In this document: positions 24,167 to 44,577 of the stretch, one piece after another
Layout: each line of letters begins with the position of its first letter
Numbering within the stretch: the stretch's first letter is position 1
Source of the DNA: a virus
DNA length: 53,703 bases
Reading direction: 5' to 3' (one strand)
Virus genome (UHGV): UHGV-0137934
Notes under the pieces: generated by a model
Told to the model about the DNA's origin: nothing
The model's database searches: none
The model's input: the letters and a program-made list of their open reading frames with translations, nothing else
Position numbers and translations under genes: made by a program

Positions 24167-25903
24167 TCACACAATGATGGGATTACTGAAAAAGTCGTCG
24201 ATATCGCCAGAATCATCCTCATAGCCTTCGGAGGCACCGATTGCCATAGCGCCCGCTACAATGCCGTCGATACGCCCGGTACTTTTTTTCTTGGCAAAAA
24301 TTCGGTTTTCTTTCTGATCAGCCTCCGTCACTGCTGAAGCCGCATTCCAGCGAAGACAAGGGTTCGTCCTGATGATAATGACGCTGTCATCAAGCAACTC
24401 TTCAAACAATTCGATGGAGTGAGGCATCCACAGCCCGGAATCTTTCGCTTTGTAATACCCTTGCCCATGAGGGATTAAGGGAACAGAAACAGATGCTTCC
24501 TCAAGCTCCGGCTCAAGATATTTAATGCGATACTGGTCGAAGGCGATGGCCTTGATATCAAACTTTTGAGTCAGATCTGCAATGCGCTGGGCAACAAAGC
24601 CGTATTTCACTGCTTTGCCAGGTGTGGTGTGTATGTGACCATCGCGCTCCCAGGCGTCATAAGGTACCCTGTCCGTTTTGGCCCGTTCCAGTAACGTATC
24701 TTTCGGGGTCCAGAACTCCACCAGCAACTTACGTTGTTTTGGAAAAAACAACGCCAGTGCCGTCAAATCACGCGATCCGGACAGGTCCAGACCGCCATAG
24801 CATTCCTCACCTTCCAGTTCATCTGGATCAAAGCTCTCCTCACAACTCATCCAGACATCACTGCTCATCCATGGATTAGCCGCGTCAACCCACTGACAGA
24901 AGTTAAGACGTCTGACGATGCTCTCTTTCGATGGCATCCCGCGGGCCTGAGTCACCTGCTCACGAAGATAGCTTTCTTCAAAGGTGTGACCCAGCGAAGG
25001 GTTAGCTTTCTTCCAGCAGGACTCATCCTTGAAAGGATCGTCTCCTTCATCCAGAGAACAAATGAAGGCGAAAAAGCTGTCATCTTCTATCGAACCGGCA
25101 GAAACCTTTCGGCCGTATTCGTGATAGTCATAGCAGACGCTCGTTTTATCGTGCCCACTGTTGGTGATCATGAAAATCAGCGCCTGCCGACGACCTTTGG
25201 TACCGGCACGCATCATTTCAACAACCTGATTGCTTTTATGCTCGTGAACTTCATCAATAAGAGCGCAATGTGGTCGCGGGCCGGACTGCCCGTCATCTGA
25301 ACTGATTGGACGAAAGAAGGAACCAGACTGAAGAAAAGCCAGGTTCCATTCCTTCCCGGCACCACCTGATTTCTGAATACGTGCGGAAAGAGCTGGAGAT
25401 TGATCAACCATCGCCACCGCATCACGGAAAAGGACCATTGCCTGGTCTTTCTTCGTGGCAGCGGCATAAACTTCAGCGCGTGCCTCTTTATCCGCAGTGA
25501 GACAGTAAAGCCCTATACCCGCAGACAGAGGGGATTTCCCGGATCCCTTCCCGGACTCCACGTAAACCATTCGGAACCGGCGAAAACCTCTGGCGTTTTT
25601 CCAGCCAAAAATAGATCCAACGATGAAGCACTGCCAGGGCAGTAACACGAAAGGCTCGCCTTCGAAATCACCACCATTGAGCTTCAGAACTTTAGCAAAA
25701 TAGTCAATCGAGCGTTGCGCCGCCTCAACATCCCAGTGCAGACCACGGGCATGACATGACTGCAGATCGTTGAGGTGGCGCTGGCATGAGTTACGTATGT
25801 CAGGACCAGCCAGTTCTTTGCCCGAGGTTACATCCATCGCATATTGGGTTGCTGGATCAACCGAAGAACTTGTCGAGCGTGTCCTCTTCGGGGTCTTCGC
25901 CAT
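24167..25903 (-). CDS. terminase large subunit
   Basis: 578 aa; Walker A-like GKGSGKS motif; nuclease C-terminal region. Confidence 0.9.
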   Translation of the reverse strand: MAKTPKRTRSTSSSVDPATQYAMDVTSGKELAGPDIRNSCQRHLNDLQSCHARGLHWDVEAAQRSIDYFAKVLKLNGGDFEGEPFVLLPWQCFIVGSIFGWKNARGFRRFRMVYVESGKGSGKSPLSAGIGLYCLTADKEARAEVYAAATKKDQAMVLFRDAVAMVDQSPALSARIQKSGGAGKEWNLAFLQSGSFFRPISSDDGQSGPRPHCALIDEVHEHKSNQVVEMMRAGTKGRRQALIFMITNSGHDKTSVCYDYHEYGRKVSAGSIEDDSFFAFICSLDEGDDPFKDESCWKKANPSLGHTFEESYLREQVTQARGMPSKESIVRRLNFCQWVDAANPWMSSDVWMSCEESFDPDELEGEECYGGLDLSGSRDLTALALFFPKQRKLLVEFWTPKDTLLERAKTDRVPYDAWERDGHIHTTPGKAVKYGFVAQRIADLTQKFDIKAIAFDQYRIKYLEPELEEASVSVPLIPHGQGYYKAKDSGLWMPHSIELFEELLDDSVIIIRTNPCLRWNAASAVTEADQKENRIFAKKKSTGRIDGIVAGAMAIGASEGYEDDSGDIDDFFSNPIIV

Positions 25904-26321
25904 TCACTTTCACCTTCGTCCTTGCCGCTGGCGTCAGACCGAATTCAACCAGGTAACTTTTAAAACGGCGGTCGGCATCGGCCAGCATCGAAACGGCCGG
26001 GTTAGCTTTGATAAGAAAACCACCCTCGGTCTGGACGGTATAGGTTCTTCCCTCTACTGCGATGGTGTCGCGCAACTGAAGGATATCAGCGTAAATATCA
26101 CATAGCCGTTCAAGGGCTAAGGTATCGGCAACCGTCAACACCCCCATCCCGTCAAGGAGAACAGTCAACCTTCCCCAGGCAACCTTTCCCCAGTCGGTCA
26201 GGTGCGCCGGCGGGCTTGGAATTTCTCGCGCCGGAGTCGGTTCTTTATCGTTGAGTTTACGTTTGCCCGGGTTGCCGGAGACCACTTTGAGGTGGGTCGG
26301 TTTCGGGCGTCTTCCTGCCAT
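25857..26321 (-). CDS. terminase small subunit
   Basis: 154 aa basic N-terminus; overlaps large subunit start. Confidence 0.75.
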   Translation of the reverse strand: MAGRRPKPTHLKVVSGNPGKRKLNDKEPTPAREIPSPPAHLTDWGKVAWGRLTVLLDGMGVLTVADTLALERLCDIYADILQLRDTIAVEGRTYTVQTEGGFLIKANPAVSMLADADRRFKSYLVEFGLTPAARTKVKVNGEDPEEDTLDKFFG

Positions 26322-26438
26322 CGGAACCTCCCGGAAAAAAACTTTTCATTTCGCGGTTGTGCACAAAAAGGATGGGCGGCGGTCATTTGGGTTCGAGGTT
26401 CTGAACTTTTGACCCGCCCCTCCCCTATGGAATTGACG

Positions 26439-26780
26439 TCATCTGAACCAGTGAGAATTTGGATCAAGCGGAATACCATTTTCATCGCAGCCGATAACGG
26501 TGCCGCGCTTCTCCATTCGCTGTTTCGTTGAGTCATGGTGCTGCTTACACAGCGCTTGCCAGTTCTTCCGGCTCCAGAAAAGCTTTTGCGCCTTCGCTAT
26601 TGCCTGGCTGTCACCAGAGCGTAGAGCCTCTTTCAGTTTGTGAGGGGTGATGTGGTCAACCACCGTTGCAGCTGTCACCCTGCCTTGCTCCTGGCACATG
26701 ACGCACAAGGGGTGCGCACGAAGGAAGATAAGACGCTCACGGTCCCATTTGCTGCCATAGATGCGGGGCTCTTTGTTCAT
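26439..26780 (-). CDS. HNH endonuclease (terminase-associated)
   Basis: 113 aa; Cys-rich HNH motifs (CVMCQ ... HHD); directly upstream of terminase genes. Confidence 0.8.
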   Translation of the reverse strand: MNKEPRIYGSKWDRERLIFLRAHPLCVMCQEQGRVTAATVVDHITPHKLKEALRSGDSQAIAKAQKLFWSRKNWQALCKQHHDSTKQRMEKRGTVIGCDENGIPLDPNSHWFR

Positions 26781-26896
26781 GCTCTCGTCCTAATGCTTGG
26801 ATGGGCGTACGATCCTCACCTGACCGAACAGCGCCGGGCGCTTAACCTCGCCGTTTTCGGCAGTGAGGTAACCACGGCTATCAAGCACAGCGGCAA

Positions 26897-27025
26897 TCAC
26901 CTCGCCTCTTTCATCGTCAGCAGAAAAGCGTGCTTTACATCAACGCCATTGAGATAAAACGTGTTATGTTCGCGACTGGATGCGATGCGTCCGCCCGGAT
27001 CGTCGTCGAGAACTATCAGGCGCAT
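26897..27025 (-). CDS. small ORF, 42 aa, possibly 5' part of a frameshifted gene
   Basis: ATG with strong GGAGG RBS; in-frame stop after 42 codons; a second frame continues to about 26786. Confidence 0.3.
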   Translation of the reverse strand: MRLIVLDDDPGGRIASSREHNTFYLNGVDVKHAFLLTMKEAR

Positions 27026-27080
27026 ATTTCCTCCAATAAAAAGCCCCGCTTGTGCGAGGCTATATCAATTATCGAAAAAA

Positions 27081-27314
27081 CTACCAGCCAACCTGTTTGA
27101 TTCCTTTGATAATCTCTTCATCACTTAGGTCGTATTGAAAACGAGCGATAAAATACTCACTACCCTGATAAGAAAATGTTTCAATCGGAATATCTATTTG
27201 GCCGTGGTTGCCTTTAGGGTCAACGCCATAACATTGGTAAACATTTAAGTTTTGTTCCAGTTTTATAATTTTAGGCTCAAGCCCAGGTAGCAATACTAAT
27301 ACTAATTTATACAT
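27081..27314 (-). CDS. hypothetical protein
   Basis: 77 aa ORF in AT-rich segment. Confidence 0.4.
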   Translation of the reverse strand: MYKLVLVLLPGLEPKIIKLEQNLNVYQCYGVDPKGNHGQIDIPIETFSYQGSEYFIARFQYDLSDEEIIKGIKQVGW

Positions 27315-27381
27315 TTTTATCTCCTCAGCTAACTCGAAGAGACATTATCACAGGCACTCAGTGAATGCCTGCTGTAATGCC

Positions 27382-27627
27382 TTAACTGGATTGTTCGGCG
27401 CTGGTATCGAAGAGCGGCAGCGCTTCAGTTGCTTCCTGTACTGCTTTCATCGTCTTTGCTACCACTTCGGTTTCTGTCGTGACGCGGCTGTATTGCTGGA
27501 TGAAAAGCTGATACTTAAGCGGGCTGTCCTGAACAAACTCTACAGCGACTTTTGCGGCGGCAGTGTCATAGTTCAGGGTTGAAAGCAGGTTCAGGCGAAT
27601 CTGCTGGGCGTCGGTGATTTCGGTCAT
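27382..27627 (-). CDS. hypothetical protein
   Basis: 81 aa ORF. Confidence 0.45.
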   Translation of the reverse strand: MTEITDAQQIRLNLLSTLNYDTAAAKVAVEFVQDSPLKYQLFIQQYSRVTTETEVVAKTMKAVQEATEALPLFDTSAEQSS

Positions 27628-27839
27628 GTCTTACCTCTAAGCGATGTGGGGAGCATTATCGAAGCCACTCGGCAGAATGGCTCCTGTAATGCCCGATCAG
27701 GCCTCGCTGGCCCGCTCAACCAAATCTTTGAAGTCCTGGCACATATGCAGTAGATGACCATGATCGTCGACAAAGTTGTAGCTTTTGAATAGTTCTACGA
27801 TTTCCTCGGGACTCTTCCCACTCAAACGAGGAAACCGTT

Positions 27840-28055
27840 TTGAATCGTCAACCTGTTTCATCTTCAAATCTCCATTCAGTTGGTTACGACCACGCCACTT
27901 CAACACTGGAAATTGCATTCCATAGCGGTGGCATTTATCAATACTCTCGGGTTCCATCTACCGTATACACAGCACTAATGAATGCGTCGTCAAAAGGCCA
28001 GTATTTTGATGCCCACATCAAAAAAGCTGGCTACGCTTACCGCAAAGTTGGGTGA
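27840..28055 (+). CDS. KTSC-domain protein
   Basis: 71 aa with TTG start and GAGGA RBS; VSSSNL.SVGYD ... TLEI.FHSGG.YQY..VP..VY..L motif. Confidence 0.55.
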   Translation: MNRQPVSSSNLHSVGYDHATSTLEIAFHSGGIYQYSRVPSTVYTALMNASSKGQYFDAHIKKAGYAYRKVG

Positions 28056-28134
28056 GAAATCTAAGCGAGGCTTGGCCTCGCTTTTTTATCTGAGGCTCTG
28101 TATGCGGATATAGCCCTGCATGCATCTAGACTGT

Positions 28135-28311
28135 TTACTTCTTAACGCTGTCCGGCATTACCGCACCAACCACGCCAGCCAGCGCCACACCGCCAGCGAT
28201 GACGGTTTCCTGAATGCCCGGAGGCATCTGGTAGCCAAATACGCCAGCAATGACCAAGATGATGCCGCGCCAGGTTGACGGCTCTTTCAGTCGATTAATG
28301 AGATAGTTCAT
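28135..28311 (-). CDS. small membrane protein translationally coupled to endolysin (lysis accessory?)
   Basis: 58 aa from ATG overlapping endolysin stop (ATGA); two hydrophobic segments. Confidence 0.45.
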   Translation of the reverse strand: MNYLINRLKEPSTWRGIILVIAGVFGYQMPPGIQETVIAGGVALAGVVGAVMPDSVKK

Positions 28312-28850
28312 AGTTCCACTCTTTCCTTTACCCAACCATAGAGAAAATCTTCATTTGCCGCCCGAGCTTCAGCAAGCTCAAGATAGCGAGCGCCCTGGCT
28401 ACAATTCAGCCCCTTCAGCAGCGTGGTTTCACCATCTTTGCCACGAACAGCGAGATAACTTTTCAGGGCGGCGATGGTGATGTTGCCGATTGCACCGTCC
28501 GGATTCAGATCCGGATATAGCTTGCCCTGCATATTCAGAGCTGATAACCAGCGCTGTAGGAATGTACTGGCGACACGTGGCCCCATGTTCACGCCGGTAT
28601 CACACAATTCCTGTGCAATGGCTGGCGACAACTCGGCGATGCGGTCGAACTTCGGTTCAGTCCAGTATTGCGACAGATAAATGGCTTTGGCTGTATCCCG
28701 TGGTAACGCCTTCATATCGCCGCTATAGCCATACGCGCGGGCAGTAGTCTGAGTGATACCCCAGCGCGTAGGGCCGCCTTTATCATTCGGGTTATTTACG
28801 TAACCCCCTTCTTTACCGAGAATGCCCTCGATAATCTGATCTGCTGTCAT
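28308..28850 (-). CDS. endolysin, GH108-type with peptidoglycan-binding C-terminal region
   Basis: 180 aa; N-terminal ILGKEGGYVNNPNDKGGPTRWGITQ motif. Confidence 0.8.
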   Translation of the reverse strand: MTADQIIEGILGKEGGYVNNPNDKGGPTRWGITQTTARAYGYSGDMKALPRDTAKAIYLSQYWTEPKFDRIAELSPAIAQELCDTGVNMGPRVASTFLQRWLSALNMQGKLYPDLNPDGAIGNITIAALKSYLAVRGKDGETTLLKGLNCSQGARYLELAEARAANEDFLYGWVKERVEL

Positions 28851-29158
28851 GGCGCCTTAACTCCGGTAATGCGCTCCCAGAAATAGGTCAAAGCAACAGA
28901 ACCCATTGCCCCGCTAATTCCGGAAGTCGCCAGTATCATGTAAATGCTCAGTCCGCTTTCAATGCTCACCAGGCCAGCAATAACGCCGGTAAACCCTGAA
29001 ACCACCATTTGGGCAAGAGCATTGAACAAGCTCCATGTTGCCTTGCTCTGCTTCACATCTATCAGGTAGCGGACAAGTCCACCCCAGCAAGCAATGATCA
29101 GCAGAACCAGCCAGGACATCCCGGCAATGCTCTCTTTGTCTTGCATACGTTTAGCCAT
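28847..29158 (-). CDS. holin
   Basis: 103 aa with about three hydrophobic helices; overlaps endolysin start; GGAGG RBS. Confidence 0.65.
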   Translation of the reverse strand: MAKRMQDKESIAGMSWLVLLIIACWGGLVRYLIDVKQSKATWSLFNALAQMVVSGFTGVIAGLVSIESGLSIYMILATSGISGAMGSVALTYFWERITGVKAP

Positions 29159-29639
29159 AGTTACCGCCTCCGATGAAAGATCGGGAAGCTGTGTGAATAA
29201 ATGGGTGGGCTCTGCGCAAGCGCCCTGCGATTGGGTTATGAACCGTCGCAGGTGAGCCCTGTATGGGGAAAGGCCGCCAGATTGATTTACGACAAAGCAC
29301 TGTGTGACTAACGTTCTGGCCGCGCATTGAGGGCTTAAGCTTCAGAAAATAAACAGATAAAAAAAATTCAAGCCACCAAAATTAAGGATCACAAAATCAA
29401 AGCATTGATTTTATTAAATAAAAATAAATCAAAGCAAAAAATAGGAATGCAGACAAGCATATTTTACTTATTAATAAGTAATTTACGGAATTAGACACCA
29501 TAAAAATCAATAAAATCAATAAACCATAAATTCAGATTAATTAGTTAAAATTAACAAGTTTTAAGGGTTAGGATTTTTCTCACTACAACTATAAATTCCT
29601 GCCAATCAATGAAAGAAAGTACTTTGGGGTAGAAATTAC

Positions 29640-44025: not shown

Positions 44026-44577
44026 TTATTTCTCCATACACAAAGATTTATTCGCCACGACGCCCGGAGCTGCACACTCGCGGGCGTCACTCTTTTCTGA
44101 CTGGCAAAAGACACGGAAAAGCAATGTCAAATGCTCCTGCCATTTCGCCATCACCTGATAACTGTTCTCCTCGATCTGCTCTCGTTCTGCCTGGTCAATA
44201 ACACCGTCAGCTGTAGCTTTACGGAGATACTGTGAGTGCTTTCCGATCCACTCGATAGACTCCATCAGGCGCTGGTTGATATCGGCGTTATCAACGTCCT
44301 CAATATCTGCCAGCGGCACAAAAACCCCGTTCGAATGGCGGGCTATCGCATTGGCTATATGATTCGAACCACCAGCGCGCTGCAGAACCATTGCCCAGCC
44401 TAGAGGGAAAATCTGATCTCCATCGGCACGTAAGCGGTTAAACAATGCGTTTTCAGTAACACCCAGCCATTCAGCTGCTTCTGCATACCCACCGTCCAAA
44501 TCAGTGATCGTTTTTTTGATCGCAGCCACCAGCCAAGCCGGCTGCTTATCAATTTTCCATTCAGGTTCTATACCCAC
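44026..44577 (-). CDS. cII-like/YdaT-like regulatory protein
   Basis: 183 aa; follows cro-like gene as ydaS-ydaT pairs do. Confidence 0.45.
   Translation of the reverse strand: MGIEPEWKIDKQPAWLVAAIKKTITDLDGGYAEAAEWLGVTENALFNRLRADGDQIFPLGWAMVLQRAGGSNHIANAIARHSNGVFVPLADIEDVDNADINQRLMESIEWIGKHSQYLRKATADGVIDQAEREQIEENSYQVMAKWQEHLTLLFRVFCQSEKSDARECAAPGVVANKSLCMEK

Follow-up and report, generated by a model that had tools for sequence, protein, structure and literature searches.

A conserved hairpin family at accessory-gene junctions in the late operons of temperate Enterobacterales phages

Temperate phage genomes are mosaics, and sequence-defined linkers at the points of module exchange have rarely been pinned down. 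Phage messages carry intercistronic hairpins that are processed by RNase III, examples of which are the sites in the early and late mRNAs of T7 and those in the N-leader and sib of lambda. REP and BIME elements are imperfect palindromes of about 35–40 nt positioned after stop codons, inside operons or at their ends, where they stabilise the upstream mRNA against 3′ exonucleases; they are also recombination hot spots. Integron attC sites are usually longer than 39 nt, above about 55 nt. Short conserved linkers at the module junctions of lambdoid phages have reportedly been described by Susskind and Botstein and, for HK620, by Clark et al. in 2001, and are said to have been proposed as sites of homologous module exchange. 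RNase III has room for a helix of about 22 bp, and the sites it uses in vivo show enrichment in intergenic regions inside transcripts (PMC6212723). The promoter-early stem-loops (PeSLs) of T4-type phages (Arbiol et al. 2010, PMC2839356; Comeau et al. 2014, PMC4122927) are composites of sigma-70 early promoters and functional terminators in lytic T4-like myoviruses.

The locus described here belongs to the viral genome UHGV-0137934, of which a stretch of 53,703 nucleotides, referred to as the window, was analysed. The region of interest is a prophage late operon transcribed from the minus strand. Gene identities in the region were assigned with Pfam, and the features are as follows:

28847–29158, late operon, minus-strand transcribed: holin (Pfam)
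28308–28850, late operon, minus-strand transcribed: GH108 endolysin (Pfam)
28135–28335, late operon: 66-aa membrane ORF
28063–28083, plus strand: the KTSC gene's own terminator (terminator prediction)
27840–28055, plus strand: KTSC-domain gene (Pfam PF13619, E = 3.7e-26)
27697–27861, minus strand: 54-aa ORF, the internal-start form of an initially annotated 86-aa ORF; a PGAP CDS in E. coli H6
27651–27694 (core 27654–27693), minus strand: hairpin copy 2 (fold, covariance model)
27628–27653, minus strand: conserved leader with the ribosome-binding region, separating copy 2 from the DUF2560 start
27382–27627, minus strand: DUF2560 gene, 81 aa (Pfam PF10834, E = 1.4e-18)
27340–27382 (core 27343–27381), minus strand: hairpin copy 1 (fold, covariance model, 100% match to phi80 44298–44336)
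27081–27314, minus strand: 77-aa ORFan with the Shine-Dalgarno sequence GGAG, directly downstream of copy 1
27042–27061, minus strand: intrinsic terminator-like hairpin and T-run after the 77-aa ORF
26439–26780, late operon, minus-strand transcribed: HNH endonuclease (Pfam)
25857–26321, late operon, minus-strand transcribed: small terminase (Pfam)

The DUF2560 gene is a cassette enclosed by the two hairpins and positioned between the lysis cassette and the HNH/terminase genes. The hairpin sequences form two direct repeats, 27343–27381 (39 nt) and 27654–27693 (40 nt; plus-strand coordinates), which are separated by 311 nt around this one gene. The initial annotation had placed a motif of about 30 near-identical nucleotides here, immediately after the stop codons of two small minus-strand ORFs. 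Its positions are confirmed by a repeat search of the window and by the 19-nt consensus GGCATTACAGSAGSCATTC, which occurs twice in the 53.7-kb window, compared with 0.01 occurrences expected from shuffles. The placement is also correct, as the core of copy 1 lies immediately 3′ of the TAA of the DUF2560 ORF (27382–27384), and copy 2 begins 3 nt past the TGA at 27697–27699. However, the repeat search identifies two adjacent blocks, 27363–27381/27675–27693 (89% identity) and 27343–27359/27654–27670 (82%), which are offset by one base. Therefore, the repeat is 39 or 40 nt long rather than about 30, and over this full length the copies are about 80% identical. The difference in length is caused by a 1-nt indel in the loop. 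A covariance model of the family, run on the whole 53.7 kb, matches only the two copies, both on the minus strand, with scores of 66.6 bits for copy 1 and 58.4 bits for copy 2, compared with 17 and 8.4 bits for their reverse complements.

The ORF adjoining copy 2 had been dismissed as likely spurious in favour of the overlapping KTSC gene. It is probably real in a shorter, 54-aa form that starts at 27861, with GGAG 8 nt upstream. PGAP annotates a homologue with 87% protein identity in E. coli H6, and the annotation of Providencia phage PSTNGR2lys includes a full-length homologue with 59% identity. The 5′ ends of the 54-aa ORF and the divergent KTSC gene overlap by 22 nt, and both genes are PGAP-annotated in E. 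coli H6. In that strain, all that is left of the hairpin after the 54-aa ORF is a decayed 5′ half (GGCGTTACCGAAGC), and a terminator like that at 27061–27042 comes next. The minus-strand terminator sequence of the window (27022–27061, AGCCTCGCACAAGCGGGGCT-TTTTATTGG) is close to the one that follows the 54-aa ORF in E. coli H6 (locus L248, 1420–1515, minus strand).

On the other side of DUF2560, the 77-aa ORFan forms a cassette with a good Shine-Dalgarno sequence and its own terminator. It belongs to no Pfam family, has no tblastn match in 50,697 phage records, and has no DNA homologue in any of the related loci compared. Between the terminator and the HNH gene (26781–27040, minus strand) there are only very short ORFs, of 42 aa (26897–27025) and 36 aa (26790–26900). 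This segment is 70–83% conserved in loci L028, L051 and L052 despite the shortness of its ORFs, and may therefore hold an unannotated small gene or RNA.

On the minus strand, which is that of the late transcript, each copy forms an imperfect hairpin of about 20 bp with the arrangement GGCAUUA-CA-(10-bp stem)-GA-UAAUGYC. Copy 1 is composed of the lower stem GGCAUUA/UAAUGUC, a 2×2 internal loop CA/GA, a 10-bp upper stem, and an ACU loop. Copy 2 has the same architecture, but with a UGCC loop. Copy 1 extends from the last base of the DUF2560 stop codon to 28 nt before the start of the 77-aa ORF, and the 3′ end of copy 2 is 26 nt before the DUF2560 start. The minus-strand RNA folds have energies of −25.0 kcal/mol (z −5.75) for copy 1 and −26.6 kcal/mol (z −3.93) for copy 2, compared with −16.4 and −20.3 kcal/mol and unremarkable z-scores for the plus strand. 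The copies differ at five positions of the upper stem, and pairing is kept at all five. From copy 1 to copy 2 the stem pairs change from C-G to G.U, from G-C to C-G, and from G.U to G-C; two of the differences are double changes (G-C to C-G and C-G to G.U).

Both copies are members of a widespread and conserved family of hairpins of about 40 nt in temperate Enterobacterales phages, with more than 200 distinct instances in viral contigs. A first search, with a pattern in which the lower stem was fixed and 18–28 nt were left free, matched at least 120 viral contigs, with 69 distinct cores among the matches listed. A sensitive search found the hairpin in 46 annotated records of temperate Enterobacterales phages, including phi80, Fels-1, ST64B, phiP27, cdtI, mEp390 and ZF40. 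The carriers comprise siphoviruses, myoviruses and Hendrixvirinae, and the genes next to the hairpin are unrelated among them. Copy 1 is 97–100% identical to unannotated sequences in phi80, mEp390 and Pectobacterium phage ZF40, the identity to phi80 44298–44336 being complete, and the flanking genes of these phages are unrelated. Conservation across related phages, on which the initial annotation had made its motif depend, is thus high.

The hairpin is also present in 412 of 5,426 complete E. coli genomes, in one to four places each. Of the E. coli matches listed, most are in stretches without annotation and the others run only into the end of a neighbouring CDS; none of them has a feature annotated for the hairpin itself. 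In a scan of one genome per species, the 23 matches that fold come without exception from Enterobacterales genera. Those from other phyla, about 97, do not fold; they represent the chance background and provide a negative control. Rfam 15 has no match that overlaps either copy, even at E ≤ 10. No description of the hairpin was found in the searchable literature, where a search with the sequence returned unrelated primers only, although older papers on lambdoid phages could mention it. The same holds for the literature on DUF2560, phi80/Lula, late-operon stem-loops and phage attC sites, and the epsilon34 genome paper does not mention the hairpin.

Two occurrences fall outside this host and replicon range. 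The record of "Elizabethkingia phage EKP1" (OM284015.1, 35841–35888) contains a 98% identical copy of the enterobacterial hairpin; since all other carriers are Enterobacterales phages, the stated Bacteroidota host is doubtful, or the record may be mixed. Copies are also found on a plasmid of Klebsiella sp. WOUb02 (unnamed4, locus L232) and in three places on E. coli plasmids, which are possibly phage-plasmids or prophages integrated in plasmids.

The covariation of the paired bases was analysed in 61 distinct sequences from the search pattern that left the upper stem free. Ninety-two percent of the cells pair, compared with 36–47% in controls slid by one to three columns. The covariation score of 0.371 compares with 0.03–0.07 in the slid controls and was reached by none of 500 shuffles, so that compensatory covariation, as is generic to structured RNA, exceeds both kinds of control. 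Eight pairs show double changes (120 cells), and six upper-stem pairs occur as several pair types; for example, pair 22–39 is CG in 32 sequences and GC in 22, and pair 24–37 is AU in 31 and CG in 23. Pair 25–36 is U.G in 46 of the 61 sequences. On the other strand this pair would be a C.A mismatch, which makes a symmetric double-stranded or cruciform role unlikely. The transcribed strand alone shows selection for the hairpin structure. Identical covariation would be expected of that strand in a single-stranded DNA form.

Because the lower stem was fixed in the first pattern, it was tested separately in a second scan, anchored on the commonest upper stem and with the lower stem free. The form CATTACAG...YGATAATG still predominates, and there are compensatory variants, CATTT/AAATG and CATTATTG/CAATAATG, as well as G.U wobbles. 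In about 10% of the variants the internal loop is closed and the helix perfect, and the internal loop is therefore not essential. A divergent member in a Providencia phage has a lower stem of different sequence that is nevertheless paired (z −8.3) and a longer helix, and it keeps CA/GA and UUC...GAG.

In the loop-closed members, one arm is the exact complement of the other, as in CATTATCA...TGATAATG or CATTACAG...CTGTAATG. Such arm-converted members are found in viral contigs L296, L301, L304, L308, L322 and L328; and in L250, L261, L264 and L303. The conversion points to correction on an intrastrand template, or to selection favouring a perfect helix.

The hairpin contains an invariant GATAAT, which could serve as the −10 element of a sigma-70 promoter, TG-extended in copy 1 (TGTGATAAT), and could allow moron-like expression of the downstream gene from the prophage. 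T4-type PeSLs combine a promoter with a stem-loop (PMC2839356). However, the interval 26700–28400 contains no promoter-like match, compared with 2.3 expected by chance, the sole −35-like hexamer, TTACAG, is 22 nt from the −10, and most variants of the family read CGATAAT, without the TG. Furthermore, the G.U-rich covariation points to selection for folding as a single strand, and a promoter has no need of such folding. A promoter function is very unlikely.

The hairpin has a characteristic position relative to genes. In 84 of 113 instances, the stop codon of an ORF of 40 codons or more falls between −14 and +1 nt from the hairpin start, with exact abutment in 36, and the next start codon is most often 16–36 nt downstream of the hairpin. 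In all seven annotated phages, the hairpin is located between the Rz/lysis and the HNH/terminase genes, on the strand of the late operon. Greedy ORF calling gives 328 neighbouring genes co-directional with the hairpin versus 62 that are not; both neighbours are on the hairpin strand in 125 cases and both opposite in 5. The coverage by stop-to-stop ORFs, used as another orientation test, is ambiguous for 165 of 211 instances.

The stable, G+C-containing hairpins right after stop codons would fit an intrinsic (Rho-independent) terminator common to both small genes, which the initial annotation had offered as a candidate. However, neither copy has a U-tract or is called terminator-like. At least five T within 8 nt after the stem are present in 8 of 191 instances, the mean T fraction is 0.25, and in 15 of the 191 a T-run resembling the end of a terminator precedes the hairpin (for example TTTTTATTGGCATTACAG). 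Genes on the same strand resume within the short distance given above, and the sole minus-strand terminator-like site of the region, 27042–27061, is outside both copies. That the hairpin is a terminator is highly improbable.

Two other functions tied to its position were considered. The AUG of the 3′ arm might start a coupled leader mini-ORF. In the window, the stop codon of this mini-ORF and the start codon of DUF2560 overlap in ATGA. The candidate was rejected, because stops close to the following start codon show no enrichment in frame 0 (15 of 98, versus 11 of 98 and 37 of 98 in the other frames) and because the length of the mini-ORF varies among DUF2560 orthologues (10, 21, 41 and 46 codons). 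A stimulator of stop-codon readthrough or frameshifting was rejected on reasoning, since the distance from stop to hairpin ranges from −14 to +1 with no fixed frame.

The constraint on the hairpin was compared with that on the gene it adjoins, using 17 DUF2560 cassettes of other phages aligned to that of the window. The third codon positions of DUF2560 have a mean identity of 40% (33–52% in all but the closest relative), the copy-1-type element 95%, the copy-2-type element 85%, and the part comprising the lower stem and internal loop 96.5%. The genes on either side are far less conserved in sequence than the hairpin between them. The leader between copy 2 and the DUF2560 start (27628–27653, minus strand, GCUCCCCACAUCGC..AGAGGUAAGAC) was compared in the same way; its 26 nt are about 90% identical in cassettes with third positions 33–52% identical. 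Such conservation beside nearly saturated third positions is more than a Shine-Dalgarno sequence alone would explain.

The two direct copies, 311 nt apart around one gene, might be regarded as the footprint of a duplicated module, as had also been put forward, in the form of a recent local duplication without a function of its own. However, the copies resemble each other less than they resemble elements elsewhere, with about 80% identity between them and 97–100% identity to copies in unrelated phages, and their differences preserve pairing. They belong to different variant classes, of which the copy-2 class is always upstream of DUF2560 and the copy-1 class always downstream, and each is orthologous to the element on the same side of DUF2560 in many other phages. 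The classes keep their sides in cassettes diverged to 69% identity, and the flanks in phi80, mEp390 and ZF40 are unrelated. The fixed sides, together with the constraint, indicate old, position-specific lineages, and a recent duplication is hardly credible. The third proposal of the initial annotation, a regulatory element, is borne out in broad terms by the conserved, strand-specific structure and by a constraint stronger than that on the flanked gene.

Some bases are near-invariant beyond the needs of pairing, namely CAUUA-CAG...YGA-UAAUG and the apical UUC...GAG. This exceeds what a structural role requires and suggests a sequence-specific partner or homogenisation by recombination. The hairpin is located 10–25 nt upstream of the next Shine-Dalgarno sequence, and it could be an RNA operator at which a sequence-specific RNA-binding protein of the phage or host controls the translation or decay of the adjacent cistron. 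However, there is no evident candidate protein, since DUF2560 is found with only a minority of the hairpin copies; variants with a closed loop or an altered lower stem persist, and the downstream genes are functionally unrelated. Such an operator is rather unlikely.

The hairpin coincides with the borders of homology between phages. In blastn comparisons of positions 25500–29500 of the window with related loci, 20 distinct HSPs start at 27341–27343 and 17 end at 27690–27693. Homology between phages breaks at the outer edges of the hairpins; as presence of the hairpin was the criterion by which the loci were chosen, this is to be expected in part. Even where a locus and the window have terminase/HNH or lysis genes in common, the place of the 77-aa ORFan is taken by different DNA. 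Across loci, the hairpin adjoins 33 upstream and 42 downstream protein clusters, including DUF2560, spanins, Rha, Mom-like proteins, HNH, the small terminase and many ORFans. Arrays of two or three same-strand copies about 311–354 nt apart are common. In loci L018 and L063, the hairpin directly follows a homologue of the 66-aa membrane ORF of the window (28135–28335). This arrangement indicates that positions 27694–28134 of the window, about 440 nt with the 54-aa ORF and the KTSC moron, are an insertion at the junction, and the block looks like a moron-type insertion. The hairpin marks points at which accessory genes are swapped between phages, and is not a terminator.

Such gene-element-gene-element arrays, with breakpoints exactly at the hairpin edges, resemble those of mobile cassettes, and the hairpin could be a DNA site that folds as a single strand and directs a recombinase or transposase (attC-like or IS200/REP-RAYT-like) in the site-specific mobilisation of the cassettes, the RNA structure being incidental. 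Strand-specific conservation, as in the bottom strands of attC sites, and invariant outer arms with a variable inner part would also fit. However, the hairpin has neither the attC R″/R′ boxes (RYYYAAC/GTTRRRY) nor a REP GTAG head, and at 39 nt it is shorter than attC sites usually are. Its carriers are siphoviruses, myoviruses and Hendrixvirinae with unrelated neighbours, and no recombinase or integrase was seen beside it in seven annotated contexts. Moreover, its co-direction with transcription and fixed placement at stop codons fit a role in mRNA. A DNA site alone is unlikely.

A selfish miniature palindromic repeat that spreads among phages and is tolerated in intergenic gaps would likewise be short, palindromic and dispersed in one to four copies per genome, and the arm-to-arm conversion to perfect palindromes in some variants could be expected of it. 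The hairpin, however, occupies one neighbourhood, from lysis to terminase genes, in one orientation only; no target-site duplications were noticed at the junctions examined, and the element has been kept beside orthologous genes through the saturation of synonymous sites. This explanation is quite unlikely.

On balance, a double role appears the likelier account: the hairpin would be an intercistronic element of the late mRNA, acting in processing, stability or insulation, and at the DNA level a recombination linker for cassettes. As RNA, it may process, stabilise or insulate the neighbouring cistrons of the late polycistronic message. In size and shape, its helix of 18–20 bp, interrupted by a central internal loop, matches an RNase III substrate or a barrier to 3′ exonucleases, and the hairpin is possibly a substrate of RNase III. 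With a helix of either kind, each cassette would be expressed independently of its neighbours. As DNA, the common 40 nt may provide a linker for homologous recombination between otherwise unrelated phages, through which single-gene cassettes such as DUF2560 could be inserted, lost and exchanged.

It is conceivable, although doubtful, that the hairpin is part of a dedicated system of cassette exchange. Hairpin-bounded genes would be excised, circularised and re-inserted at the junction of the lysis and terminase genes, and the RNA hairpin would give them context-independent expression. The cassettes would be single accessory genes, namely morons and possibly genes of defence or counter-defence. 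Such a system would correspond, in these phages, to integron attC sites or to the mini-circles of T4 PeSLs.

The element is, with slightly better than even confidence, an intercistronic hairpin that doubles as a recombination linker, and it has so far gone unannotated. The junction hairpin is a precise, 40-nt, covariation-supported element, which current annotation misses, with nothing in PGAP or GenBank records and no Rfam family. It marks a hot spot where unrelated accessory genes plug into the late operon, and is a practical marker for finding islands of accessory genes. If it is a signal of RNA processing or insulation, it explains how a single long transcript can express arbitrary cassettes, and it might find use as a natural insulator part. 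If it drives the exchange of cassettes, it offers a testable mechanism for the acquisition of morons by enteric prophages. It occurs in phages and strains that are easily manipulated (phi80, Fels-1, ST64B, phiP27 and E. coli Nissle).

Among the known systems, integron attC sites are, like the junction hairpin, strand-specific imperfect inverted repeats, one after every promoterless cassette gene, in which the outer arms are conserved and the inner part varies. Unlike them, the junction hairpin is 39–40 nt long and has no R″/L″/L′/R′ boxes on either strand; neither the core sites R″(RYYYAAC)...R′(GTTRRRY) with extrahelical bases nor the size of attC sites is found, and no integrase adjoins it in the seven annotated contexts. 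A survey of phage attC sites mentions none of the phages that carry the hairpin (PMC9892861).

The junction hairpin resembles REP/BIME elements as an imperfect palindrome of about 35–40 nt placed after stop codons. However, its sequence is different, without the GTAG head, and it has one to four copies per genome, not hundreds. The copies examined in annotated records are all in late regions of phages or prophages, and no association with a RAYT is evident. The hallmarks of REP/RAYT systems, a GT(A/G)G head, tens to hundreds of copies and a cognate RAYT, are accordingly absent.

PeSLs are similar in being short, conserved intergenic stem-loop motifs that flank small non-essential or ORFan genes in a plastic region, that are exchange points between otherwise unrelated sequences, and that form gene-motif-gene arrays. 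Variable, non-essential flanking genes and indel or replacement junctions at the motif are found for the junction hairpin as well. In contrast to PeSLs, it has no promoter match and no U-tract, its sequence is unrelated, and it is positioned inside the late operon of temperate Enterobacterales phages. The strong sigma-70-like promoter of a PeSL has no counterpart in the motif (0 sites in 26700–28400; TTACAG-GATAAT at 22 nt), and the stem-loop is present without terminator features.

The RNase III hairpins of phages have in common with the junction hairpin a helix of about 20 bp, a central internal loop, and a location between the cistrons of a phage polycistronic mRNA. The intercistronic double-stranded segment of about 20–22 bp, often with an internal loop, that is typical of RNase III substrates is present here as 8 + 10 bp with a 2×2 loop. 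The junction hairpin differs in that it is not known to be related in sequence to those sites and in that about 10% of its family lack the internal loop. Like the boundary sequences of lambdoid phages, it is a short conserved sequence at module junctions. In contrast to those linkers, it is a defined, covariation-supported hairpin with a probable function as RNA.
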